DNA from: a virus
Taxonomy: Duplodnaviria > Heunggongvirae > Uroviricota > Caudoviricetes
Length of the DNA: 13,031 nt
Virus record (IMG/VR): IMGVR_UViG_2548876858_000019
Reading direction: 5' to 3' (one strand)
Positions 1,249 to 13,031 of the stretch are shown here, piece after piece. Position 1 is the first letter of the stretch. The number at the start of each line of letters is the position of its first letter. A program made the position numbers and the translations under genes. A model generated the notes under the pieces. The model worked only from the letters and a program-made list of their open reading frames with translations, did no database searches and was not told the DNA's origin.

Positions 1249-1330
1249 ACGTAAACTTTTTCCGGTTGTTGTCGATATCTCCATATCCCTCAACCGGAAA
1301 ATAATAATACAAAAATGCTTAGCCCTGCTA

Positions 1331-1564
1331 ATAATCGCCTAATCCAAACGCCTCATTCATGTTCTGGTACAGTCGCTCAAATGTACTCCGGATACGCGGT
1401 TCGCTGATTTCCAGGACATTGTCGTCATTCAGCGACCTGTCCCGTGTATCACGGGCCTGCGAATTCATCAAGGAATGCATTGCAGAGTGAAGTATCGAGT
1501 CACGCCATATTTCGCTATCAGGATTCTGTATGATGGTTACATCGCCCGGCCCAGGGCTGTTTAG
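1331..1564 (-). pseudogene. possible 3' remnant of a disrupted gene (start-less open frame)
   Basis: Minus-strand frame open for about 78 codons, ending ...EISEPRIRSTFERLYQNMNEAFGLGDY at TAG (1328-1330), protein-like composition but no upstream start; lies between cscB and the att repeat. Confidence 0.2.
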
Positions 1565-1689
1565 TCATCAGCGCTTTCTGACAGTGCTGAGATTTCAACC
1601 TGTTGCAGTAAAAATGAGTAGATATAGGGCAAGTGTGCTGCCAAACCCATCTTTTACGGGGTGAAGGTAGATTTGGTTTGAAGGGTATC

Positions 1690-1711
1690 TGGTGTCCCTG
1701 CAGGAATCGAA
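1690..1711 (-). repeat. att-type direct repeat: partial copy of a tRNA 3' end (T-loop to CCA)
   Basis: Minus strand reads TTCGATTCCTGCAGGGACACCA (T-loop GTTCGATTCC, acceptor-stem 3' half, ACCA); no tRNA 5' portion upstream, so it is a partial copy; the sequence resembles what I recall of the argW tRNA-Arg 3' end; integrase start sits at the opposite end of the element. Confidence 0.6.
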
Positions 1712-1761
1712 AATGTATTTATATCTATGTTTTATAAAGGTAATTTAAGTGGTTGTTTTGT

Positions 1762-1784
1762 TGATACCATCATGGATACCATCA
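1762..1784 (+). repeat. tandem direct repeat GATACCATCA x2, candidate integrase arm-type sites
   Basis: GATACCATCAtgGATACCATCA about 50 bp inside the element from the att core. Confidence 0.3.
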
Positions 1785-2124
1785 AACGATAAAAACATCT
1801 CATTAAGGCCATAGAGATCGGCCTATTCCGTCAGTTTCAATAATGAATAGTTGGATGAAAAAACGACGGGGCAGGGGGCTGGCAAATCTGCGAAAAGGTT
1901 GAAAAATGCGCAAAAAAGTTATCACACCCCACGCATTATACAATGCTGCTCGCAAACCAGCGCCAACTCTGGGAAGTCAGGGGGATACACCCTAAAGTAT
2001 TTTTTTCATTTTATGTATACCAGAATGGCTTTAAATCACTCACCATCCAGCGCTATAACCGGGTTTAACCGTGTATACCATCCCCCATGTGATATGACGT
2101 ATTCTCATTCATAAAACCCTTTAT

Positions 2125-2200
2125 TGTATCGAATTTGACACAATACCCGCCCGCAGTAATCAGACCGTCAAGCAAATATCGTTGTACTGTTCACGACACA
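2125..2200 (+). promoter_or_regulatory. two TGT-N12-ACA dyads (Ogr/Delta-box-like) upstream of the portal gene
   Basis: TTGTATCGAATTTGACACAA (2124-2143) and TTGTACTGTTCACGACACAC (2182-2201); each has exact TGT-N12-ACA spacing and shares 14-15 of 20 positions with the dyad upstream of the sid-like gene. Confidence 0.4.
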
Positions 2201-2236
2201 CCTGATCACTCAAGAATTGTTCACAGCGAGAAAAAT

Positions 2237-3262
2237 ATGGATAACCCGGACAAAACTCCCGTACCTGAGGTCACTGTAGCAACAGAACCGCAGCCCTCTG
2301 CAGAATGCTTCACCTTTGGCGATCCCATTCCGGTACTGGACCGGCGCGAGCTGCTTGATTATGTGGAGTGCGTACAGATTGATCGCTGGTATGAACCGCC
2401 GGTCAGTTTTGCCGGGCTGGCACGTACCTACCGCGCTGCCGTGCATCACAGTTCACCAATTGCTGTTAAGCGTGACATTCTCAGCAGCACCTTCATCCCA
2501 CACCGCTTGCTCAGCCAGCAGTCTTTCGCCCGTTTCGTTCAGGATTATCTGGTGTTTGGTAATGCTTATCTGGAAAAGCGCACCAACTGGCTGGGTGATG
2601 TCCTCTCACTGGAGCCAGCGCTGGCAAAGTATACCCGGCGCGGCGTTGACCTAGAATCCTACTGGTTTGTGAACTACGGCCTGACGATGCAGCCTTATGA
2701 GTTCACCAGAGGCAACATTTTTCATCTGATGGAGCCGGATATTAACCAAGAGATTTACGGGCTGCCCGGTTATCTCTCCGCCATTCCGTCAACCCTGCTC
2801 AACGAGTCCGCAACGCTGTTCCGTCGGAAATATTACATCAACGGCAGCCATGTAGGCTTCATCATGTACATGACCGACGCTGCGCAGAATCAGGAGGATG
2901 TGAACAACATCCGCAAGGCAATGAAAAGTGCCAAAGGACCGGGCAATTTTCGCAATCTCTTTATGTACTCACCCAATGGCAAAAAAGATGGCATCCAGAT
3001 CATCCCCCTATCCGAAGTTGCGGCGAAAGATGAGTTTCTGAACATCAAGAACGTGAGCCGTGATGACATGATGGCAGCGCACCGTGTGCCACCGCAGATG
3101 ATGGGAATCATGCCGAGTAACGTTGGGGGGTTTGGAGATGTAGAAAAAGCCAGCCGTGTTTTTGTTCGCAACGAACTGATGCCGCTACAGAAGCGACTGC
3201 AGGAACTGAACGACTGGTGTGGCGAGAAAATAATTAGTTTTGAACCTTATACACTTGAGTAA
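2237..3262 (+). CDS. phage portal protein, P2 Q / PBSX-type
   Basis: 341 aa from ATG 2237 (track ORF starts at TTG 2135; trimmed); portal-like clip motif RDDMMAAHRVPPQMMGI; length close to P2 Q as I recall it; ends at TAA 3260-3262 before a terminator. Confidence 0.7.
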   Translation: MDNPDKTPVPEVTVATEPQPSAECFTFGDPIPVLDRRELLDYVECVQIDRWYEPPVSFAGLARTYRAAVHHSSPIAVKRDILSSTFIPHRLLSQQSFARFVQDYLVFGNAYLEKRTNWLGDVLSLEPALAKYTRRGVDLESYWFVNYGLTMQPYEFTRGNIFHLMEPDINQEIYGLPGYLSAIPSTLLNESATLFRRKYYINGSHVGFIMYMTDAAQNQEDVNNIRKAMKSAKGPGNFRNLFMYSPNGKKDGIQIIPLSEVAAKDEFLNIKNVSRDDMMAAHRVPPQMMGIMPSNVGGFGDVEKASRVFVRNELMPLQKRLQELNDWCGEKIISFEPYTLE

Positions 3263-3291: not shown

Positions 3292-4257
3292 TTAATCGGG
3301 AAGGTTACGTAAATCGATATATGAGAAAAATGCGGCACCTTTCTCAGTTAACTCGTATCGAAGATATCGATTTTCCATTATTGGCGTTGTTTTGAGTAGG
3401 CCATGGACCATCATTAACGTGCAAACATTTCTAACCAAAAAACCAGCTAAGTCAGTCGAATTTGATCTTAACCCAGAAAGAATAGTTCCTCTATACAGCA
3501 AAATGAGTCGCATTGCTGTTGTTTTAACTGGCTCTGGAGTTTCGGATAATTTTGTCGGGATCGTTAACTGTGTATTTTCAAATAGCTTATATATTTTACT
3601 GAACTCTTCCTCAGATGGTTTTTTTACTATAGCTTTACTTTCAGGAGAACGTGCAGCTCTGAGAAGTTCAACCTCAGATTTTAAAGCTTCATTTTCCTTC
3701 GTTAGTTTAGATATTTGTTCTATTAACACACTTGACTCTGATATTTCCTTTCCAGAAACCCACCCAAGGAGATTTCTCTCGACACCAATTTGAGGAAGTG
3801 TCTTATAAATTGATATTTGTATATCTTTAATATCCCGAAAAAATTCCACCGGATACCCCTTGACCTTTTGTTTGAAAGCTTCATATTTTGTCGGGTTATC
3901 TAATTCAAGAACTTCCTTACCAACTGTTTTAACTTTTTCATCTAGATATTCGTCATCAATGACTATCGAAAATAGAGGTTTGTTTGTACTTAAAGCATAA
4001 TCATATTCGAGCTCTGTATAGCAATAATCACTGCCGGGAGCAATCGTTCCATAACGCCCTCCCAGAATAAGGATGTAGATATCTGACTCATCTATCCAGC
4101 GCTTAATAATTTCTAACTGGCTTCTGTCTCCAGGCTTAAATAGCTCCATTCCCGCAGGTATATGCCCGGCAGTTAATATGGCACTTACCGCAGCTTGCCT
4201 TTCTTCAATGAGGTCTGTAAAAGTTGATGAAATGAAAACTTGAAATTTCCTATTCAT
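3292..4257 (-). CDS. DUF4062-like domain protein with coiled-coil and C-terminal domain of unknown function (candidate defence cargo)
   Basis: 321 aa from ATG 4255-4257; N-terminus MNRKFQVFISSTFTDLIEERQAAV...ILILGGRYGTIAPGSDYCYTELEYDYA fits the FISSTF/ER/GGRYG/TExEY signature I associate with DUF4062; central coiled-coil (ISKLTKENEALKSEVELLRAA); visibly AT-rich; terminators on both sides. Confidence 0.8.
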   Translation of the reverse strand: MNRKFQVFISSTFTDLIEERQAAVSAILTAGHIPAGMELFKPGDRSQLEIIKRWIDESDIYILILGGRYGTIAPGSDYCYTELEYDYALSTNKPLFSIVIDDEYLDEKVKTVGKEVLELDNPTKYEAFKQKVKGYPVEFFRDIKDIQISIYKTLPQIGVERNLLGWVSGKEISESSVLIEQISKLTKENEALKSEVELLRAARSPESKAIVKKPSEEEFSKIYKLFENTQLTIPTKLSETPEPVKTTAMRLILLYRGTILSGLRSNSTDLAGFLVRNVCTLMMVHGLLKTTPIMENRYLRYELTEKGAAFFSYIDLRNLPD

Positions 4258-4703: not shown

Positions 4704-4976
4704 TCAGACAGGGATTTGCTGGCGGCTTGATAACTTTGATGCAGAGCCATAGCGATTGAGCGTTTGCTGTTGTTTTTCCGGCATTTGTGCTTTGTCTGAT
4801 TCCTGTTCATTGCGCCGGGGCTTCATAATTATCTTATCCACACTTTCCAGAGCGGTAAATGTGCAGGAACATTCAAGATTCTGGCACTGATACCATGAGC
4901 GTTTAACCGACGGTGCTTCATAGGCGGTGGTTCTGGCGTGTGCAACGGTGCCGCATTCAGGACATTTCAGCGCCAT
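4704..4976 (-). CDS. Ogr/Delta-family zinc-finger late-gene transcription activator
   Basis: 90 aa, MALKCPECGTVAHARTTAY...YQCQNLECSCTF: C-x2-C...C-x4-C motif and overall pattern of P2 Ogr / P4 Delta; ATG overlaps the TGA of the upstream sid-like gene (ATGA). Confidence 0.85.
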   Translation of the reverse strand: MALKCPECGTVAHARTTAYEAPSVKRSWYQCQNLECSCTFTALESVDKIIMKPRRNEQESDKAQMPEKQQQTLNRYGSASKLSSRQQIPV

Positions 4977-5737
4977 CAGATACCCTCCATATCACGGTTA
5001 CGTTTCTGCAGCTCTTCACGTTCCTGACGGATCTTCATTTTGTGAAGGGCCGCCGGTGACGGGATTTTGCTTAAATCGACACGAGCCGCATAATCCGGCG
5101 CAACGCCCGCCAGTTTAAACACAGGGTCCAGTTCCGGCATCGCAGTGTTAGCAAGAGCCGGTTTGGTGATATGTTTGTGAATAAAGTCTTTCAGCAGTGT
5201 GTCCGGGTCATTAACTGAATTCACCACCCCCACAACGGCACTGGCTTCCCGCCCCATTGTGGTTTTGAGCAGGCTCAGTGTCTGGATTAACGCCTTACCA
5301 TGCGCCTGCATGAAGTCTTCCCAGATTTGCTTTGCGCGAATTTCCACAAGGGTGTTATGTGCGCTGATATACTGCCCGGCTAATTTCCCGGCTTCCTGCG
5401 GTAATAAGGCATTTTCGCTTTCCTGAGCTGCCAGCAGTTCATCAAAATCCTCAAGCGTTTCTCGTCCCAGCGCAATTTCCGTGCGCAGTTTTTTCATTTC
5501 CTTTGAGACTACGCCCTGACTTTCACGAAACAGCGTGCGCCACTCCTCATTCAGCGCGTTCGTCGTGGCTTCCATTTCAGCCCGGCGCTGGCGGATTGTC
5601 GCAATATTATCCGCTGCCGCTTTCTGCCGACGACGTGCTTCAAGCCATGCGCTTCTGGCTGTATTCAGGGTTTCCATTGCCTGCTGCGTTACAGCCGGAA
5701 AAGTGGAAAGGTTGTTATTCTCTGCGGTGTTGTTCAT
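4976..5737 (-). CDS. Sid/Psu-family protein (P4 capsid size determination-like; Psu-like not excluded)
   Basis: 253 aa, coiled-coil rich; segment AGQYISAHNTLVEIRAKQIWEDFMQAHGKALIQTL matches the Psu/Sid family pattern as I recall it; sits directly upstream of and coupled to delta as sid does in P4; AGGAGA Shine-Dalgarno before ATG 5735-5737. Confidence 0.65.
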   Translation of the reverse strand: MNNTAENNNLSTFPAVTQQAMETLNTARSAWLEARRRQKAAADNIATIRQRRAEMEATTNALNEEWRTLFRESQGVVSKEMKKLRTEIALGRETLEDFDELLAAQESENALLPQEAGKLAGQYISAHNTLVEIRAKQIWEDFMQAHGKALIQTLSLLKTTMGREASAVVGVVNSVNDPDTLLKDFIHKHITKPALANTAMPELDPVFKLAGVAPDYAARVDLSKIPSPAALHKMKIRQEREELQKRNRDMEGI

Positions 5738-5771
5738 GACTTCTCCTGCCGGGTTGGTTCGTTACGTCAAT

Positions 5772-5827
5772 TGTGTCGTGACTGACACAAGCGCACTATC
5801 GGCGCTCAGTGTGTGGTGGCTGGCACA
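5772..5827 (-). promoter_or_regulatory. Psid-like late promoter with two Delta-box dyads
   Basis: TGT-N12-ACA at 5772-5789 (within TTGTGTCGTGACTGACACAA) and at 5810-5827; centres 38 bp apart and about 43 and 81 bp upstream of the sid-like ATG, consistent with activator sites near -18 and -55. Confidence 0.55.
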
Positions 5828-5914
5828 ACGGGCGTTTGCGGTTATTCAGACGCGGCCATGACAGCCAGCCAGATAAAAATGCCTCTGTTTCAGCCTGCTT
5901 TATGTCCCGGATGC

Positions 5915-6110
5915 GGTGAAACAGGTGGAACAGGTGTTACAGCATTGTTTTGTAAAACATTTATATGCACATCACAGGTGAAACATCGCAGGTAACAAGG
6001 TGGAACAGCGGATCGGCTGGCGTTCCACCTGTTCCACCTCACTATTTCAGAAGGTGAAACAGGTTTAGCCCTTGTAAAATACGGGTGTTCCACCTGTTTC
6101 ACCTGTTACC
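5915..6110. repeat. iteron array, candidate replication origin / crr-like site
   Basis: At least nine copies of the 9-mer GGTG(A/G)AACA or its complement TGTT(C/T)CACC: plus orientation at 5915, 5924, 5977, 5999, 6053; minus orientation at 6021/6030, 6086, 6095, with tandem pairs; AT-rich stretch 5941-5970 in the middle; 28 bp downstream of the primase stop. Confidence 0.7.
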
Positions 6111-6137
6111 CTTAATAAATAAGACTCACGCAAAGCC

Positions 6138-8810
6138 TTAACCCGGCACCTCGCTGTTGAAGACATAGAGTCTGCGGGGATTCATCTCTGGCGGGCGAAT
6201 GGTTGTCTGCAGCTTGCCATCGGTGGAGGGCAGCAGGTATCCACGATCCGCGCACAGACGCGCCACCTTGCGCGGGTCAAATCCCCGGCAGATTTCTTTC
6301 CAGCCGGACGGCATGACGTAGAACGTGGTGACGGCCTCCGTGCCCTGCGCGGTACTGCCTTTCTCCACCCTGCGCCAGCCCACCATATTGCCGGGGCGGT
6401 TACGCTCGTCGTGCCAGTCAGCAAAGCGGCTGTACTGATTCGCGGTAAAGAAGCTGCGTACCTGCTCCAGTGCGGCAATATCTTCCTGATTGGCGGTGTG
6501 CCCGCGATCTTTCAGCCATGCGTTCAGGCAGACGCGGGTTGCCCGCAGCGCTTCACCCTCAGGCCAGCCGGTAATACCCAGCCGGGTTGCCAGCTCGCCC
6601 GCCATCGCCACCAGTGCAAAGCGGTTCACAGCCCGGCCTACCTGATTACCCGCATCTTTCGGGGTCAGGGCGGCTGTATATTCCTTCATCAGTGACTTTG
6701 CCTGTGCCGTCAGCCCGTTAAGGTCAGCGGTCAGGGCTTTCAGCCACTCCCTGAACGGCGAACCGTAGTAGCTGGACGTGGCCCACTCCAGATGTTCCGC
6801 CAGAGCCTTGCCGCTGTCGAAGCCGTGCAGCTCCTCAAATACGCCAAATTTCCCGGAATCGCTGGGGATCTGGATCATCCTGACTTCCATCCCGGCAAAG
6901 GTACGCTCACCGGCTTTTGCCGCATGTTCGGTCAGTGACAGCTCGCCGGTTGAAAAGAACAGCAGCCGCCACTGCTTACGGGTGCGCAGCTCACCGTCCG
7001 TACCGGCACGGCCCTTGCCCTGACCGTTTGCCAGCATGTAGGCGATATTACCCGCCTCGCGTCCGTCCACCTCCCGGATCTCATCGAGCATCATGGCGGC
7101 ATCGTTGCGGCGGCTGGCGCATCCCTCCAGCGCGTTGCCGGTTGCCCGCCACGTCTGCCAGTAATCAGGCCCGCCACAAACGGAGGTTGCCGCTTTCATG
7201 GTGGTGGTCTTACCGTCAGTCGATTCCCCCTTGAGGTGGTAGCCGCCGCCGTCCATCCCAACCAGCCGTAACAGGGGTGCAGCAAAGGCCAGACTGACGG
7301 CAAACGCCACGCGGGAGTTACCGGTGCAGTAACGGGAAACGTGCTCCCGCCATTCCTCCGTTGTACCTGACACACGGAAATCGCGCCCCTGCACGGAAGT
7401 GGTCTGGAGAATGACACCCTCTGCACCTTCACCGCTGACCTCATCCTGCAGGACGTAAACCTGACCATGCCAGCCAGTGCGGCTGACGCAGGTCACGCGG
7501 CGTTCCGGTTTACACAGCGAGATATATTCCATCAGGCGGGCGCGGGCCTCACCGGTGGTGCTGATATAGGACAGCCCGTTAACCAGCAGTACCCGGCGTA
7601 GTTCCTCACCGCTACCACTGAGCATTTCCATCGGCATCGCCCAGCGGCGGCGCTCTCCCCATGTATCTTCCCACTCCAGCAGTCGCCCGAAATTACCGCC
7701 ATCAGCATCGCAGGTGATTGCCGTCACGCGCAACGGGTTGCATATTTTGACGTTCTGGATCTCCGTCTCACCGTTGCGCTGTACCTGTTTTTCATACCAG
7801 AGATATTCCTGGGTAAGACGGAACCCGTGCGGCAACTGCGTGCGGCCTTCTCCGCACAGTACAAGACCGTTACGAAAGGCTTCACGGGCACGTGTAATAC
7901 CGTGCTCACGGTGGAAGTCATTCCAGTCAGCTTTAATTTCTCCCGGTGGCAGCGTCACCCAGCCACCGACTGATTTTGCCGCCCGTTCAGCAAAGGATCT
8001 GCCGGGATTCTCGCCCCCGTCCTGAAAATCGTTATCACCGGCGATGATAATTTTTACCTCAGGCCAGCGTGCCCGCAGCGCCTGTGCGACGTTGGGCAGG
8101 TTGCCCGCCGATATGGCCGCCACTACGCATCCGGCGGTGAGCTGGCTTACCGTCAGCGCCGTGGCGTAACCTTCGGTAATCACCACCTGTACCGGCGGTT
8201 CAGACGGTAACGGGCTGAGCGCCACAAACGCGCCTTTCATCGTGCTGCCGGGCAGTATGCTTTTTTCACCCGTCGGGGCGATAAGCTGTGCACCGGTCAC
8301 GGCTCCGGCGTTCGTCGTGAGCGGTAACAGCAGGGAACCGGCAGGGAAATCCTTACCACTGATATGCTGCACGCTCCCGGTCAGGGAGGCCGGGTATCCG
8401 GCGAACCCTTTTCCGGTCAGATAGGGGCTTTCTCCCGTGTGACTCTCTTTCATCAGGGCCGCCACGGTAAGGCTCATATCGCGTTTAGGGGCTTTTTGCC
8501 TGGCGGGCTTAACGGGCAGTTCCTGCACATCCGGCACATTAAGCACCTGCGCCACCTCCTGCGCTGCCTTTCTGATGCCGTAACCGGTTATGAGCTTAAC
8601 CAGATCCAGACCATCACCATTGCCGCACTGGCTGCAAATCCACGTCCCGCGCCCGTCGAGGTCATCGAGGCGGAAGCGATCCTTGCCCCCACATTTCGGG
8701 CAGGGACCGTGCCTGCCGTTTTCAGGTACATCAATACGCAGCATCTGCAGAATGACGGGCCATTTTCCCCGCGCTGCGGCTGAAATCTGCGTAACCGTCT
8801 GTGTTGTCAT
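6138..8810 (-). CDS. P4 alpha-type primase-helicase (zinc finger + Toprim + P-loop NTPase)
   Basis: 890 aa; N-terminal HGPCPKCGG...CSQCGNGDG zinc finger; Toprim-like ITEGYATALTV and IIAGDNDFQDGG; Walker A GESTDGKTT; GGGGGA Shine-Dalgarno; ATG overlaps the TGA of the upstream ORF. Confidence 0.85.
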   Translation of the reverse strand: MTTQTVTQISAAARGKWPVILQMLRIDVPENGRHGPCPKCGGKDRFRLDDLDGRGTWICSQCGNGDGLDLVKLITGYGIRKAAQEVAQVLNVPDVQELPVKPARQKAPKRDMSLTVAALMKESHTGESPYLTGKGFAGYPASLTGSVQHISGKDFPAGSLLLPLTTNAGAVTGAQLIAPTGEKSILPGSTMKGAFVALSPLPSEPPVQVVITEGYATALTVSQLTAGCVVAAISAGNLPNVAQALRARWPEVKIIIAGDNDFQDGGENPGRSFAERAAKSVGGWVTLPPGEIKADWNDFHREHGITRAREAFRNGLVLCGEGRTQLPHGFRLTQEYLWYEKQVQRNGETEIQNVKICNPLRVTAITCDADGGNFGRLLEWEDTWGERRRWAMPMEMLSGSGEELRRVLLVNGLSYISTTGEARARLMEYISLCKPERRVTCVSRTGWHGQVYVLQDEVSGEGAEGVILQTTSVQGRDFRVSGTTEEWREHVSRYCTGNSRVAFAVSLAFAAPLLRLVGMDGGGYHLKGESTDGKTTTMKAATSVCGGPDYWQTWRATGNALEGCASRRNDAAMMLDEIREVDGREAGNIAYMLANGQGKGRAGTDGELRTRKQWRLLFFSTGELSLTEHAAKAGERTFAGMEVRMIQIPSDSGKFGVFEELHGFDSGKALAEHLEWATSSYYGSPFREWLKALTADLNGLTAQAKSLMKEYTAALTPKDAGNQVGRAVNRFALVAMAGELATRLGITGWPEGEALRATRVCLNAWLKDRGHTANQEDIAALEQVRSFFTANQYSRFADWHDERNRPGNMVGWRRVEKGSTAQGTEAVTTFYVMPSGWKEICRGFDPRKVARLCADRGYLLPSTDGKLQTTIRPPEMNPRRLYVFNSEVPG

Positions 8811-9190
8811 ATTTCCCCCTGATACAGCGATACACCCGAGCTGCAGAAGTCATCAAATGCCGCCGGAAGTGTGCGGTACAGCTCCGCCATCACTTCACAG
8901 CCGCGCACAGTCAGTACCGGTGGCGCGGTCAGCAATGATGGCTCCAGCATGTCAGTCAGCAGCGCCAGTGCAGCCGCTGCTCCCTGTGCTTCGCCATATT
9001 CGTTAATCAGTGCGCACTCGATATGCAGGGCAATGGCCATTTCAATACGTTCAACCGTCAGGCTGTGCGGACCATAGTGATCGCAGCCGGTTTCGGTCAG
9101 CGCTTTCTGGCGCCAGGCCGATGCAATAGCCCGCCGGTAAAGCGCAGTGGTCATTTCTGCCGGAAAAATAGAAACCTGCGGCTGGTTCAT
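8807..9190 (-). CDS. hypothetical protein (replication-module small ORF)
   Basis: 127 aa; strong AAGGAGG Shine-Dalgarno 7 nt before ATG; ATGA overlaps at both ends with neighbouring ORFs; no recognisable motif. Confidence 0.5.
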   Translation of the reverse strand: MNQPQVSIFPAEMTTALYRRAIASAWRQKALTETGCDHYGPHSLTVERIEMAIALHIECALINEYGEAQGAAAALALLTDMLEPSLLTAPPVLTVRGCEVMAELYRTLPAAFDDFCSSGVSLYQGEI

Positions 9191-9471
9191 TGGGTGCCTC
9201 CTTCAATCAGTTCGCAACTGTGCGCAATATCCGTCAAATCTGCCCGCAGGTACTCCATCAGCGCGGCGATGCCTGGCGCACATCCTGCATCCAGCGTTCC
9301 GCCCTGCGAGGGGTATTCAGAAAAGAGAAGCTGCAACATGTCGCAGGCCTTTCTGGCGCGGTCCAGCTTTCCGAAACCGTCCTCTGACAACCCATACGCA
9401 AAAGCACCGCTATTGTGTTTTTCAGGCAAAGCGTGGCCCTGAGCACCGTTGTGCCCGTTTGAAATATTCAT
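9187..9471 (-). CDS. hypothetical protein (replication-module small ORF)
   Basis: 94 aa; ATG 9469-9471 with GGAG upstream; stop overlaps the next start (ATGA). Confidence 0.45.
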   Translation of the reverse strand: MNISNGHNGAQGHALPEKHNSGAFAYGLSEDGFGKLDRARKACDMLQLLFSEYPSQGGTLDAGCAPGIAALMEYLRADLTDIAHSCELIEGGTQ

Positions 9472-9502
9472 CGTGGATTACTCCGTTTTCAGCGGTGTTT
9501 TG

Positions 9503-9862
9503 TCAGAGAAACTTTGAATAGTGACTGTCGTCAGGTTCAGCAGAACGCCGTATGCTGCGCTCCCGCCAGCGGGTAAATACCACCGACGGATGCAGCGTCA
9601 GCGAGCCAGAGCCGCTACCCCCCGCGGGAGCTAGCGAAGGTTTAAAGAGCGGGGCATTAAACAGGCGCGTATACCGCTGCTCAAACCATGCCAGAGGGCA
9701 GGAAGAAAGCTTATTGTCGCTGTCATGACGAATCAGCACTTCACAGCTGAATTCAGGGTTAACCAGCGCCACGGAGGGCGAGGCTTCAGTTAATCTGATA
9801 ATCGTGACAGTCCAGCCACGCTCATGCTGCCAGCGTTCGCCGGGTTGCGGATAATTACGCAT
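9503..9862 (-). CDS. hypothetical protein
   Basis: Track ORF starts at TTG 9892; first ATG at 9860-9862 is preceded by GGAGGTG and overlaps the stop of the upstream small ORF (ATGCGTAA); C-terminal half is low complexity (AGGSGSGS). Confidence 0.4.
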   Translation of the reverse strand: MRNYPQPGERWQHERGWTVTIIRLTEASPSVALVNPEFSCEVLIRHDSDNKLSSCPLAWFEQRYTRLFNAPLFKPSLAPAGGSGSGSLTLHPSVVFTRWRERSIRRSAEPDDSHYSKFL

Positions 9863-10031
9863 GTTCACCTCCACAGGGAATGCGACCGGCAAAGCTCAGC
9901 ACATAGTCCGGGGCAAGTCTGCGCCGCGCTGAGCGCTCGTTATCTGCGGTGATCCTTAACATCACAGGACGGGCATTGCGTTGACTGCGGTTGATCGCCG
10001 CAAATAACCAGGTACACTTCTGTTTAGCCAT
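9855..10031 (-). CDS. hypothetical small basic protein (first gene of the leftward operon)
   Basis: Track ORF starts at GTG 10085; ATG 10029-10031 preceded by GAGGT gives 58 aa MAKQKCTWLFAAINRSQRNARPVMLRITADNERSARRRLAPDYV...; coupled to the next ORF. Confidence 0.35.
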   Translation of the reverse strand: MAKQKCTWLFAAINRSQRNARPVMLRITADNERSARRRLAPDYVLSFAGRIPCGGEHA

Positions 10032-10113
10032 TTTCGTTACCTCATCTAACGCTTTGGTCAGACGCCTCGGCAGTGCCGCAAACACTCCGGGGCGTTGCTA
10101 TTTTGATTCCTTG

Positions 10114-10169
10114 TGTGTAATGTGTCATTACACATAAGCACATTACAATAGGTGTAATTGACGTGTCAA
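10114..10169. promoter_or_regulatory. operator-like palindromes in a divergent promoter region
   Basis: Perfect inverted repeat TGTGTAATG-tgt-CATTACACA (10114-10134) and palindrome TTGACGTGTCAA (10158-10169) overlapping the GTG start of the ribbon-helix-helix gene; lies between the leftward small-ORF/primase operon and the rightward RHH gene. Confidence 0.45.
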
Positions 10170-10342
10170 CACACAAGAACGAAAGACGTGGTAATCCACC
10201 ATTCCAGTTCAGACTTGACCCTGAATTGCGTGAGTTAATGGAAGAAGCACAGCAGCAGGATGGTGATGAATCACTGGCTGCTTGGATCAAACGCATTATC
10301 CGCAAAGAGCTACAAAGTCGTGGTTCCGAACCAAAGAACTGA
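10163..10342 (+). CDS. putative ribbon-helix-helix (Arc/CopG-like) DNA-binding protein
   Basis: 59-aa frame from GTG 10163 to TGA 10340-10342, absent from the ORF track (below its 60-aa cutoff); VSTHKNERRGNPPFQFRLDPELRELMEEAQQQDGDESLAAWIKRIIRKEL has the basic N-terminus, short beta-strand and two helices typical of RHH regulators; AGGTG upstream; the antisense 121-aa track ORF looks non-coding. Confidence 0.45.
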   Translation: MSTHKNERRGNPPFQFRLDPELRELMEEAQQQDGDESLAAWIKRIIRKELQSRGSEPKN

Positions 10343-10352
10343 TAAATACATG

Positions 10353-10379
10353 GGGAAGATTTTCTTCTTTCCCATTTTT
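10353..10379 (+). terminator. possible terminator after the RHH gene
   Basis: Imperfect hairpin GGGAAGA-tttt-cTTCTTTCCC followed by ATTTTTC. Confidence 0.3.
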
Positions 10380-10393
10380 CTAAGGTCGTCATA

Positions 10394-10603
10394 TTATTTA
10401 TCAGCATCTGAGGATTGAGCTTTTACCCACTGTCTAATTTCTTGTGCATCGTAAACAGTTACCCGTTTTGAAATACGTGTGGATTTTGGAAATTCAGGAT
10501 TGTTTTTTTCCCAGCGCCAGAGAGTAACTGTGCTTACTTGCAAAAAGTCAGCAGTAGCCCGTGGGCGGGCATGCCCGGTGATAGGGTAAGTTTTTAATGT
10601 CAT
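10394..10603 (-). CDS. alpA: AlpA/Vis-family phage transcriptional regulator
   Basis: 69 aa; TADFLQVSTVTLWRWEKNNPEFPKSTRISKRVTVYDAQEIRQWV fits the AlpA-type helix-turn-helix pattern; typical size and position next to a P4-type integrase. Confidence 0.7.
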   Translation of the reverse strand: MTLKTYPITGHARPRATADFLQVSTVTLWRWEKNNPEFPKSTRISKRVTVYDAQEIRQWVKAQSSDADK

Positions 10604-10609
10604 GAAATT

Positions 10610-10637
10610 ACCTGCCGTGTTATGTAATGAACACGGC
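10610..10637. other. 10-bp-stem hairpin immediately upstream of the alpA start
   Basis: CTGCCGTGTT-(8 nt)-AACACGGCAG; on the minus strand its 3' arm runs into the alpA ribosome-binding site (CAGGTAATTTCATG). Confidence 0.4.
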
Positions 10638-10710
10638 AGATGATGGCAAGGTTAGGGCTAAATTATCAGTGCCACTATTTTGTTTTTATGATGGTATAAA
10701 ATATTACCAC

Positions 10711-11685
10711 TTAAAATCTTCCTGCTTTAGATGAGCTAAGACATTCTTTTATCTTATCTTTTCCAAGTTCAACCTTTGTTTTTGGATTGTTTCTTTCTGC
10801 CACGATTTTATCTGCCCACGCGTCAATAGTCAGTTTTCCTCGTTTTCCATTGCAAGATGCTGGGTCATTTAGTAACCAATAAATAGCTGCTTTGTACACT
10901 GCCTCTCTTTTTGTTGCTGATGCTTCAACATTACCATGCACTCTTCGGATGCTTTCGATGCTGGATACACCACCATTCACATAGCTGGGTAGCTCTTTGC
11001 CAACACCGTTATCTAATTTTTCTATTTGGTATCTTGTTAAATAGATATCATCCAGTGTTATATTTCCAATAATATTTTTATTAGATGGAGATACTAATCC
11101 CTCTATTGATGATAAGCCTTCGAAAGGGGACATTGCTAATATTACCCACTCATCACTGCCAAATGCAGCATTAGTGAATGGCATATTAGCTTCTTTAAAA
11201 GAAATATCATGTGCTAATAGCCTTGCTTTACCATATACCTTTAGTTCTTTGTATAATGAAGATGTTGGGCTGATGACACATATAGACCACAATCCAGAAA
11301 GTAAGATTAATGGGCTTTTTATATTTGGTTTGTTTTCTAAATGGTATATTTGTTTTGGAGGTGAAAATGGCTTATCTTCTGTATAATCAATATCGAATTT
11401 TGCTTTTGGTATGAAATGGCTTAATGCAGATTTATTACTATAGTTTAATACTCTGGGTGGGTACATGTTTTCCCAATCTTTAAAATCTCCACCTTTACGC
11501 ATCATCATTAGCGCAGCTTCGAAACCATTTAATTCTAAGCAAAATTCGATAATTCCAATTTGAGCAAAATGGATAAGGTCATCAATTTGGCAATTAAGTA
11601 GTTCAGCAGCTCGTTTTAGGGAGCAAAATTCCATTACAGGAATACTATTCCTTTCCCAAACATTTAATCGTGTATTATCGCTCAT
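10711..11685 (-). CDS. hypothetical protein X, AT-rich, between integrase and alpA
   Basis: Track ORF starts at TTG 11763 overlapping the int stop; ATG 11683-11685 has a good AGGTGA Shine-Dalgarno and gives 324 aa starting MSDNTRLNVWERNSIPVMEF; no motif I can name; visibly AT-rich. Confidence 0.6.
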   Translation of the reverse strand: MSDNTRLNVWERNSIPVMEFCSLKRAAELLNCQIDDLIHFAQIGIIEFCLELNGFEAALMMMRKGGDFKDWENMYPPRVLNYSNKSALSHFIPKAKFDIDYTEDKPFSPPKQIYHLENKPNIKSPLILLSGLWSICVISPTSSLYKELKVYGKARLLAHDISFKEANMPFTNAAFGSDEWVILAMSPFEGLSSIEGLVSPSNKNIIGNITLDDIYLTRYQIEKLDNGVGKELPSYVNGGVSSIESIRRVHGNVEASATKREAVYKAAIYWLLNDPASCNGKRGKLTIDAWADKIVAERNNPKTKVELGKDKIKECLSSSKAGRF

Positions 11686-11759
11686 CACGTCACCTGTATG
11701 CACATATGGTAAAATGGGGCGAATAGCAGACTTTACTACTATTAGCCATTTTCTTATTT

Positions 11760-13031
11760 TCAAACAACGCGTAGTTTTTTCATTTTATAGGGGGCAATAT
11801 ATCTATCAGTGTTAGCTTCAATATAATTAGACCACCATTGCATCATCCGACGACGTTCATGCATATGCTGAGCTAAGTGTACATAAGCGGCTCGCACTTC
11901 ATTTCGTTCTTGATGGCTCATTTGCCGTTCTACTGCATCCCTCGACCATAAGCCTGATTCTGTCAGGGCTGAGCACGCCATTGCCCTAAATCCATGAAGG
12001 CAAATGTCCACCTGCGTGTCGTACCCCATAATTCTTAATGACTTATTAACTGTGTTCTCACTCATTGGTTTGTAAGGGTTACTATCTCCGGGGAAAATAA
12101 GTTCATACTCACCACTTATTTTTTTAATAGCTTCGAGAACATCAATAGCTTCATTAGATAATGGAACATAATGAATACTGCCCATTTTTGCCCCACGCTC
12201 TGAATATTTTACCCCATCAATTCTTTTTCTTTGAGCAGGAATAGTCCACATTGCATTTTCAAAATTAATTTCCTCCCATCTTGCGTGTCTCAGTTCACTG
12301 GAGCGAACAAAAGTATGAAGAGAAAATAATACTGCCAGCTTAGTTAACGGCCTCCCTGTATAGCTATCAATTTTTGATATTAATTCGGGTAATCGTTCTA
12401 ACGGAAGTGCAGGGCGATGCTTTATTTTGGGGCTGGAAATTGCTCCTCTTAGATCATGGGTAGGATTGTATTCAACAATTCCACGCTGAATAGCGTACCG
12501 GAAAACGCTTGCAAGAGTAGTTTTCACTCTTCCTGTTGTTGCTCCAATTCCCTGATCACTCATCCTCACCAATAATGGCAACAGGTCACTTGTTTTTAAT
12601 GAGTCGATGGGTTTATTTCCGATATATGGGAAAATATGATTTTCCATTTCTCTTAAAATTTTAGTGCGGGTAATCTCTTTCCATGAGGGATGGCCTATAG
12701 AGCCTTTATGCCACTCTAAAGCGATTGTCTGGAATGTAGCAGAGGCGGGTTCTGTTGGCGCTGCTTTTTTAGATACTCTGGGATCAACACCGTCGGCTAA
12801 AAGTTGCCTTGCTTCATCTCTACGCTTACGGGCAAGTGCCAGCGAAACGTCTGGGAAAACGCCCAAAGCCAGCGTAGCTTGTTTGCCGTTAAATCTGTAG
12901 TTCATTCGCCATGCCTTGGTCCCGTTCTTTTTAACTAAAAGATACAGGCTTCCCCCATCCGTCAGTTTGTAGTCTGTTTCTTTGGGTTTAGCGTTTTCAA
13001 CTTTCTTGGGTGATAGCTCATTTAGTGCCAT
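11760..13031 (-). CDS. tyrosine recombinase, P4 / CP4-57 IntA-type integrase
   Basis: 423 aa; N-terminal arm-binding region (YKLTDGGSLYLLVKKNGTKAWRMNYRFNGK); catalytic-region HGFR (HxxR) and tyrosine in RAAYVHL; start codon is the last three bases of the window, facing the presumed tRNA. Confidence 0.9.
   Translation of the reverse strand: MALNELSPKKVENAKPKETDYKLTDGGSLYLLVKKNGTKAWRMNYRFNGKQATLALGVFPDVSLALARKRRDEARQLLADGVDPRVSKKAAPTEPASATFQTIALEWHKGSIGHPSWKEITRTKILREMENHIFPYIGNKPIDSLKTSDLLPLLVRMSDQGIGATTGRVKTTLASVFRYAIQRGIVEYNPTHDLRGAISSPKIKHRPALPLERLPELISKIDSYTGRPLTKLAVLFSLHTFVRSSELRHARWEEINFENAMWTIPAQRKRIDGVKYSERGAKMGSIHYVPLSNEAIDVLEAIKKISGEYELIFPGDSNPYKPMSENTVNKSLRIMGYDTQVDICLHGFRAMACSALTESGLWSRDAVERQMSHQERNEVRAAYVHLAQHMHERRRMMQWWSNYIEANTDRYIAPYKMKKLRVV

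Follow-up and report, generated by a model that had tools for sequence, protein, structure and literature searches.

Between the integrase gene int and the regulator gene alpA of an Escherichia coli phage satellite lies a gene, here called X, which we tentatively read as a regulator that is encoded in an exchangeable cassette and binds DNA immediately upstream of alpA, in the int-alpA module of P4-like satellites and of satellites resembling phage-inducible chromosomal islands (PICIs). The satellite was analyzed in a stretch of 13,031 nucleotides from IMG/VR record IMGVR_UViG_2548876858_000019 (Caudoviricetes), called the window below; X is the gene at 10711 to 11685 on its minus strand, and compared loci are labeled L001 to L039. 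In the proposed mechanism, X would be made together with int in the quiescent satellite and would bind a cognate motif beside the alpA promoter. Transcription of alpA, the gene that switches excision and induction, would then depend on bound X, and a swap of the cassette would change the specificity of alpA control. As a putative DNA-binding regulator of a mobile element, X combines a new architecture with a position that had not been described before. The three genes of the unit are as follows (lengths in amino acids, aa).

11760 to 13031, minus strand: P4-type tyrosine integrase, 423 aa, first in the int-X-alpA unit, with Arm-DNA-bind_3, Phage_int_M and Phage_integrase domains
10711 to 11685, minus strand: gene X, 324 aa, member of an unnamed family (partly phrog_7144)
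10394 to 10603, minus strand: alpA/vis-type regulator, 69 aa, last in the int-X-alpA unit (Phage_AlpA, E 7.9e-07)

Cassette exchange of X between int and alpA

X is a real gene and not a chance open reading frame (ORF), since it evolves under purifying selection, has many homologous clusters and recurs as an allele in E. coli genomes. Its ratio of nonsynonymous to synonymous substitution rates (dN/dS) is 0.07-0.10 against two homologues of about 80% nucleotide identity, comparable to that of its neighbors (int 0.05; alpA 0.11-0.19), and its C-terminal third is the most constrained part (0.03-0.04). The reading frame at its longest runs from 10711 to 11763 on the minus strand (350 aa counted from TTG 11763). 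An earlier note on this DNA had placed the gene behind int in the same orientation, starting at ATG 11685 with the Shine-Dalgarno sequence AGGTGA. Both the ORF and this start are confirmed: RefSeq uses the same codon (WP_024235423.1, 975 bp), and the alignment of all homologues begins there with an invariant methionine (M1). The sequence AGGTGA-CGTG precedes this ATG, which yields 324 aa up to the stop codon at 10711-10713, and a 74-nt spacer separates X from the end of the int ORF at 11760 (stop codon 11760-11762). The note's contrast between an AT-rich X and a GC-rich primase region also holds, the guanine-cytosine (GC) contents being 35.0% and 57-63% (int 42.1%, alpA 42.4%), and X is AT-rich in every locus, with 34-41% GC against 42-56% for its int and alpA neighbors, a difference of 6-17 points. 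A decaying or selfish passenger ORF without present function would be consistent with the truncation of one of seven near-identical IMG/VR copies of a sister allele (L028, 235 aa) and with short orphan relatives in Klebsiella that lack int or alpA. Given the low dN/dS, at least 419 clusters of intact length and strict synteny across orders of bacteria, this explanation is very improbable.

The family to which X belongs has no name. The earlier note had recognized no motif in the protein, and Pfam, NCBIfam and PADLOC agree in returning zero matches; neither X nor any of its three fragments is matched even at E<=10, and among 81 diverse relatives none reaches the Pfam threshold or matches any PADLOC v2 model. 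In PHROGs v4, residues 18-112 match phrog_7144 (unknown function; E 4.4e-05), as do 16 of the 81 relatives (best E 1.1e-42); this group takes in only a subset of the family and is without functional annotation. A word-indexed search with X yielded only 15 clusters, and a profile search of 1.84 billion representatives (50%-identity clusters) yielded at least 419 relatives at E<=0.001, of which 130 reach E<=1e-10. Their lengths are mostly 260-350 aa, and it is the two ends of X that they match, not the middle. X falls within this length range and carries the family motifs IPxLEYCxLxRAAxLLxCxxxDLLHWAxIG, GLW and DxYLTRxxIEKL. Relatives are named 'hypothetical protein' in every case seen, and we found no paper in the literature naming accessions of the family or phrog_7144. 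Profile searches of PDB sequences gave chance-level matches only, and a genome search with a narrow X alignment gave only 4 loci. A tblastn search of 50,697 phage records produced one marginal match to the family and none in P4, which indicates that it is not carried by sequenced phages. Even if X is accessory, its family merits a name and a profile model, as annotation tools leave it 'hypothetical' and the int-alpA slot is not counted among the variable regions of satellites.

A synteny survey of the int-alpA interval, as the earlier note had proposed, revealed the order int, X, alpA on one strand in all of the approximately 19 distinct elements examined that have a full-length relative. These elements come from Escherichia, Klebsiella, Pantoea, Citrobacter, Enterobacter, Scandinavium, Aeromonas and metagenomes, and as in the window X is encoded between a P4-type integrase and alpA. 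The int-X spacer mostly measures 20-140 nt (405 nt in L013, which has a frameshifted integrase) and the X-alpA spacer mostly 92-126 nt (23 nt in L022, 251 nt in L015). Backbones vary, from P4-like with Psu and Delta to an Aeromonas element with a GpO-type scaffold and PICI-like elements that encode AntA, ProQ or SSB; the sites of integration vary as well, and integrase identity falls to 18-25%. The only exceptions to the order are short Klebsiella relatives of 216-257 aa with no int or alpA alongside (L011 7001-7774, L012 6992-7753 and L014 6992-7642, from Klebsiella grimontii, K. spallanzanii and K. aerogenes). They have only the N-terminal winged helix in common with X, at about 42-51% identity, and the one in L011 is located after yfdC, the chromosomal site of the E. 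coli satellite. These genes are remnants, or else copies that have been domesticated.

Within this constant position, X varies far more than its flanks. The integrases of L017 and L010 are 93% identical and their alpA products 91%, with X at 27%; the corresponding values are 100%, 58% and 39% for L021 and L022, and 87%, 62% and 22% for L006 and L031. The window and L008, two E. coli argW satellites, likewise have int at 77%, alpA at 86% and X at 23% identity. Among 5426 complete E. coli genomes, 10 carry the window allele (at least 99.7% identical) and 66 a 293-aa sister allele; each is nearly clonal and there are no intermediates, the two being still homologous (pairwise E 5e-19). DNA homology between exchanged pairs is lost near the int stop codon and returns 38-48 nt before the alpA ATG, so the exchanged unit comprises X and about 70 bp on its 3' side. 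Recombination within X occurs too, as homology between the window and L017 returns from X residue ~212 and is continuous through alpA. Judged from these alignments, X is exchanged as a cassette and does not co-evolve with int.

Nor is X always present. The functional PICI EcCIMP1 lacks it, having an unrelated 427-bp spacer in its place, although its int and alpA are 88% and 69% identical to those of the Citrobacter element L035, which has X. EcCIMP1_002 was considered as an X homologue and rejected, as it is a small unrelated ORF. Of the two alternatives offered by the earlier note, a conserved integrase-module protein is thus the better supported, in that the int-X-alpA order recurs in all full-length members examined; the qualification is that X is optional and swapped independently of int.

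The exchange pattern bears on whether X is instead a recombination accessory protein, a directionality or architectural factor working with the integrase at att while AlpA acts as a transcription factor. Such a role is unlikely. X does not co-vary with int, as integrases that are 100% or 93% identical carry X proteins at 39% or 27%; EcCIMP1 excises without X and needs alpA for excision (PMC11773190); and a protein of 324 aa and three domains is unlike known recombination directionality factors (RDFs). The fold class of its N-terminal domain, described below, is the feature that X has in common with them.

The same pattern bears on the other alternative of the earlier note, that X is accessory cargo with a possible defense role. 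In this explanation X would be cargo that is expressed from the quiescent satellite and directed against phages or rival elements; it might, for example, bind a phage protein or foreign DNA (exclusion, interference or antirepressor-like action), and its deep allelic variation would mirror the diversity of its targets. The low GC of X in every locus, its optional presence, the deeply diverged alleles in near-identical flanks and the variable middle domain are all consistent with cargo, and satellites are known to carry defense genes (PMC13586616). We nevertheless consider this possibility doubtful. The defense-predictor check suggested in the note, run with PADLOC v2, left X and its 81 relatives without a match and gave the idea no positive support; no enzymatic or membrane effector domain was found in X; and the slot always holds one family, unlike true hotspots. 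Selection within the allele lineage is purifying, the dN/dS analysis giving no sign of positive selection.

Predicted DNA-binding domains and type-specific motifs

The full-length AlphaFold model of X, built from 15 sequences, has a mean confidence (predicted local distance difference test, pLDDT) of 66 and is confident at residues ~15-60 and in parts of 120-230. Together with fold searches it suggests three regions.

11506 to 11643, minus strand: predicted winged helix-turn-helix of the MerR/Xis/AlpA fold class, conserved, X residues ~15-60 (fold searches)
10981 to 11505, minus strand: variable beta-rich middle, X residues ~61-235, the least conserved part
10714 to 10980, minus strand: helical winged-helix-like C-terminal domain of type 'A1' (HGNVEASATKREAVYKAAIYWLL...), X residues ~236-324

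The profile and fold searches proposed in the earlier note thus point to winged-helix ends in an unnamed family, and they returned no structural match for the middle. The first region is predicted to adopt the winged helix fold of the MerR/Xis class, and the X profile aligns in register with the AlpA alignment, weakly (E 0.0098). The note had named homology to an RDF as a finding that would speak against its reading; such homology is seen at fold level in the N-terminal ~60 residues only. Foldseek against BFVD gave no match to X at E<=0.001. In the middle region, G131 and W133 alone are near-invariant, and closer relatives also keep D213 without exception; the dN/dS of this region, 0.08-0.15, is the highest of the three parts. 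A model without the N-terminal domain, meant to improve the middle, made it worse (pLDDT 40-66). The C-terminal domain occurs in at least four sequence types. Both terminal domains are putatively DNA-binding, with modest fold scores.

Support for a target of X near alpA comes from the non-coding DNA beside it. Each C-terminal type has its own conserved motif, 2-40 nt past the stop codon, in the approximately 100-bp spacer before alpA. The non-coding elements of the window are as follows.

10664 to 10687, minus strand: conserved non-coding motif AAAAACAAAAT-N-GTGGCACTGATA, 24 nt past the stop codon of X and putatively an operator or promoter element
10612 to 10639, minus strand: perfect 10-bp inverted repeat CTGCCGTGTT-N8-AACACGGCAG, a candidate hairpin sequestering the ribosome-binding site, ending 8 nt before alpA ATG 10603
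11686 to 11759, minus strand: int-X spacer with a stem-loop, a U-run (terminator-like) and a second hairpin pairing with the X Shine-Dalgarno sequence (-19.7 kcal/mol, z -2.4)

The type A1 motif, AAAAACAAAAT-N3-G-N-CACT, is found in all A1 loci, once in each and at a constant place, and is absent from the other loci; the window accordingly has a single occurrence. It is also found in L013, whose X, int and alpA are only 34%, 18% and 25% identical to those of the window. Type B loci carry two palindromes, GGA[AGC]TT-N4-8-AA[CT]TCC, about 20 bp apart. These have 11 matches in 567 kb, where 0.9 are expected, and all lie 2-40 nt past an X stop codon. They are common to Aeromonas and Enterobacteriaceae elements with alpA 16-37% identical, and are absent from the X-less EcCIMP1, whose int and alpA are 88% and 69% identical to those of a palindrome-bearing element. 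It is therefore X that the motif follows, and neither int nor alpA. Palindromes of their own also mark types A2 and C. An IMG/VR scan with one exact form of the palindrome found 4 matches, each single and unlinked and none accompanied by X, int or alpA; by our own estimate, about as many would arise by chance in a collection of this size. In the loci themselves the motifs have no further copies, either in the vicinity of att or in other parts, and this suggests that the regulatory target is local. The co-variation suggests that X, and not another protein, reads the motifs. Two other features were dropped: an inverted repeat GTGGTA..TACCAT directly past the window's X stop codon, considered as an operator, is not conserved in L003 or L020, and TGGCAC does not have the spacing for a sigma-54-like element.

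These type-specific motifs beside X are left unexplained if X is cargo. They also count against a recombination role: about 1 kb separates them from the int gene and over 2 kb from the att side, and there are no copies near att.

alpA itself seems to be insulated by RNA structure. The hairpin at 10612-10639 has a folding energy of -18.4 kcal/mol (z -4.4) and its 3' arm covers the Shine-Dalgarno sequence. A hairpin before alpA is clear (z < -2.5) in 10 of 14 X-bearing loci and weaker in two more (z -1.5 and -1.9), with arm sequences that vary among loci; it is absent from two X-less int-alpA loci, CP4-57 and EcCIMP1 (z about 0). The hairpin could block alpA translation on int-X read-through transcripts, by analogy with the fold-back inhibition of IS10, or could be a palindromic operator. 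Separate insulation of alpA in most X-bearing loci fits expression of X while alpA is silent, and it further weakens the recombination explanation in suggesting that X and alpA are expressed under different conditions. The int-X spacer is homologous in L006, L009, L010, L017, L021, L030 and L039 despite integrases only about 23% identical. Its fold z-scores are mixed (-2.4, 0.2, -0.6 and -2.2), and RNAalifold supports only a 4-bp inner stem with little covariation. Rfam has no family matching the int-X or X-alpA spacers.

Several points weigh against X as a regulator acting upstream of alpA. The A1 motif of the window is not palindromic, and no helix-turn-helix (HTH) family reaches threshold by sequence, a single relative of the 81 matching HTH_17 (E 0.005). 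EcCIMP1 has a working satellite cycle without X (PMC11773190), so X cannot be the sole or essential switch. The association between motif and C-terminus could be explained in part by a co-inherited recombination block, as in the homology between the window and L017, and the motifs could be 3' RNA elements or sites of another protein. In favor of a regulator is the account given in the founding paper on Gram-negative PICIs, in which expression of alpA sets off excision and replication, the helper factor that induces alpA is not identified and no global repressor is clear (PMC6092414). The X family is a concrete candidate for how Gram-negative satellites stay silent and sense their helper.

The surrounding satellite

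The element is a P4-like satellite of E. coli, but with a non-P4 gene order. Its int-X-alpA segment is 100% identical to E. coli chromosome NZ_CP101915.1. The integration site is a tRNA-Arg gene (argW) beside yfdC, and in the full genome the tRNA lies approximately 190 bp upstream of int. At least 76 of the 5426 complete E. coli genomes have this type of element at argW. On the minus strand, int, X and alpA are followed by an Icd-like gene, two hypothetical genes and DUF5375, and then by genes for a TOPRIM/DUF927 primase, a Psu/Sid-like capsid morphogenesis protein, an Ogr/Delta zinc-finger protein and a DUF4062 protein; a portal gene, which is truncated, and the csc genes for sucrose are found beyond it. 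P4-like satellites usually have the order int, hotspot, psu-delta-sid, alpA, epsilon, alpha, their defense hotspot being the interval between int and psu-delta-sid (PMC8628076, PMC13586616); this order is reported for 77% of full-set (Type A) members. In the window the psu-like and delta genes lie at 4704-5737, after the primase, and farther out is the DUF4062 gene, which is AT-rich. It is therefore this far end, and not the position of X, that is equivalent to the hotspot, so that the analogy which the earlier note had drawn between X and the P4 hotspot was misapplied, and X as cargo would sit away from the expected place. Overall, window 4704-13031 has the single-strand order int, alpA, primase, Sid/Psu-like, Delta, which resembles the zones of PICIs, yet its late genes are P4-type.

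The int-X-alpA unit is closed by one further feature.

10350 to 10375, no strand assigned: terminator-like hairpin between the convergent alpA (minus strand) and an Arc-like ORF (plus strand)

With alpA and the Arc-like ORF converging on this hairpin, int-X-alpA looks like a transcription unit of its own. The small Arc-like (ribbon-helix-helix) ORF, at 10163-10342 on the plus strand, is divergent from the icd-primase operon, and it is plausibly an immunity or switch regulator of that replication operon.

Further observations concern the distal part of the element. The DUF4062 gene (3292-4257, minus strand; 34-38% GC), beyond Ogr/Delta, encodes 321 aa with an N-terminal DUF4062 and a coiled-coil tail; the protein has no significant PADLOC match and matches phrog_15411 (unknown function). 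In the sister element L008 two different hypothetical genes take its place. Before delta, the window has one 253-aa Psu-family gene (4976-5737), and sister elements have two genes, a Sid-like one of about 248 aa and a 183-aa Psu (L003 15952-17246; L008 3146-4437); the short psu gene seems to be absent from the window element. A truncated P2/PBSX-type portal gene (2135-3262, plus strand) adjoins the far end of the satellite, and in Klebsiella michiganensis (L003/L004 17900-20975) P2-like tail genes (tail assembly chaperone, GpE and tape measure) directly follow the homologous satellite. A satellite and a helper-type prophage thus appear to stand in tandem at the same tRNA-Arg site, only a remnant of the prophage being left in the window. 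Finally, the reference genome Evo1 (NZ_CP101915.1; L001 3886-5937) has an IS903B insertion between the sucrose transporter gene and the portal fragment. The window (1249-2134) lacks it, so the window strain differs from the best int-X-alpA match.

Comparison with known systems

The first ~60 residues of X are predicted to have the fold class of the winged helix proteins AlpA, Vis and excisionase (PF05930, PF12728; P4 Vis, GIsul2 Xis 8c3t, Pukovnik Xis 4j2n) and of MerR N-termini. Like X, the AlpA/Vis/Xis proteins are encoded beside a tyrosine integrase in a mobile element. They measure 55-90 aa, whereas X has 324 aa with two further domains; small single-domain excision proteins go with a cognate integrase, and X, with its three regions, does not co-vary with int. 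X and its N-terminal fragment have no match to the PF05930 and PF12728 hidden Markov models at E<=10. With a genuine alpA directly downstream, X is not the AlpA of the element.

The int-proximal hotspot of P4 (gop-beta-cII and its replacements) is AT-rich, variable and downstream of int, as is X. P4 hotspots hold unrelated systems between int and psu/delta/sid; the X slot lies between int and alpA and holds the same family when occupied (approximately 19 elements), being otherwise empty or filled by unrelated DNA (EcCIMP1). Neither X nor its 81 relatives match a defense protein model of PADLOC v2. The earlier note had also compared X to YfjH of the E. coli K-12 element CP4-57, an uncharacterized protein of 318 aa encoded between intA and alpA. 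Position and size are indeed alike; yfjH, unlike X, is on the opposite strand to intA and alpA, and homology between the two was rejected (BLASTP best E 0.54; hhalign profile probability 0.9%).

A functional parallel may be Stl (Rpr) of the Gram-positive Staphylococcus aureus pathogenicity islands and PICIs. Stl has an XRE-type HTH and is all-helical. It resembles X in lying beside int and in combining an N-terminal DNA-binding domain, predicted in the case of X, with variable domains. Both have deeply divergent alleles between related satellites, and Stl acts on the switch region of its element, as X would (PMC6092414). If the predicted winged helix is accepted, X therefore has the hallmarks of this class, a DNA-binding protein next to int with allelic hypervariability. 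The differences are that Stl is divergent from the operon it controls and essential for quiescence, whereas X is an optional gene that runs in the same direction as int and alpA and is predicted to encode a winged helix of the MerR/Xis type; the related functional PICI EcCIMP1 is still helper-dependent without it. It is improbable, though conceivable, that the X family is the Stl counterpart and specificity-determining regulator of Gram-negative satellites, in which X would repress the alpA promoter through its own operator and its middle domain would bind a helper-phage protein. If that were so, cassette exchange would re-target a satellite to another helper or give it a different immunity type.

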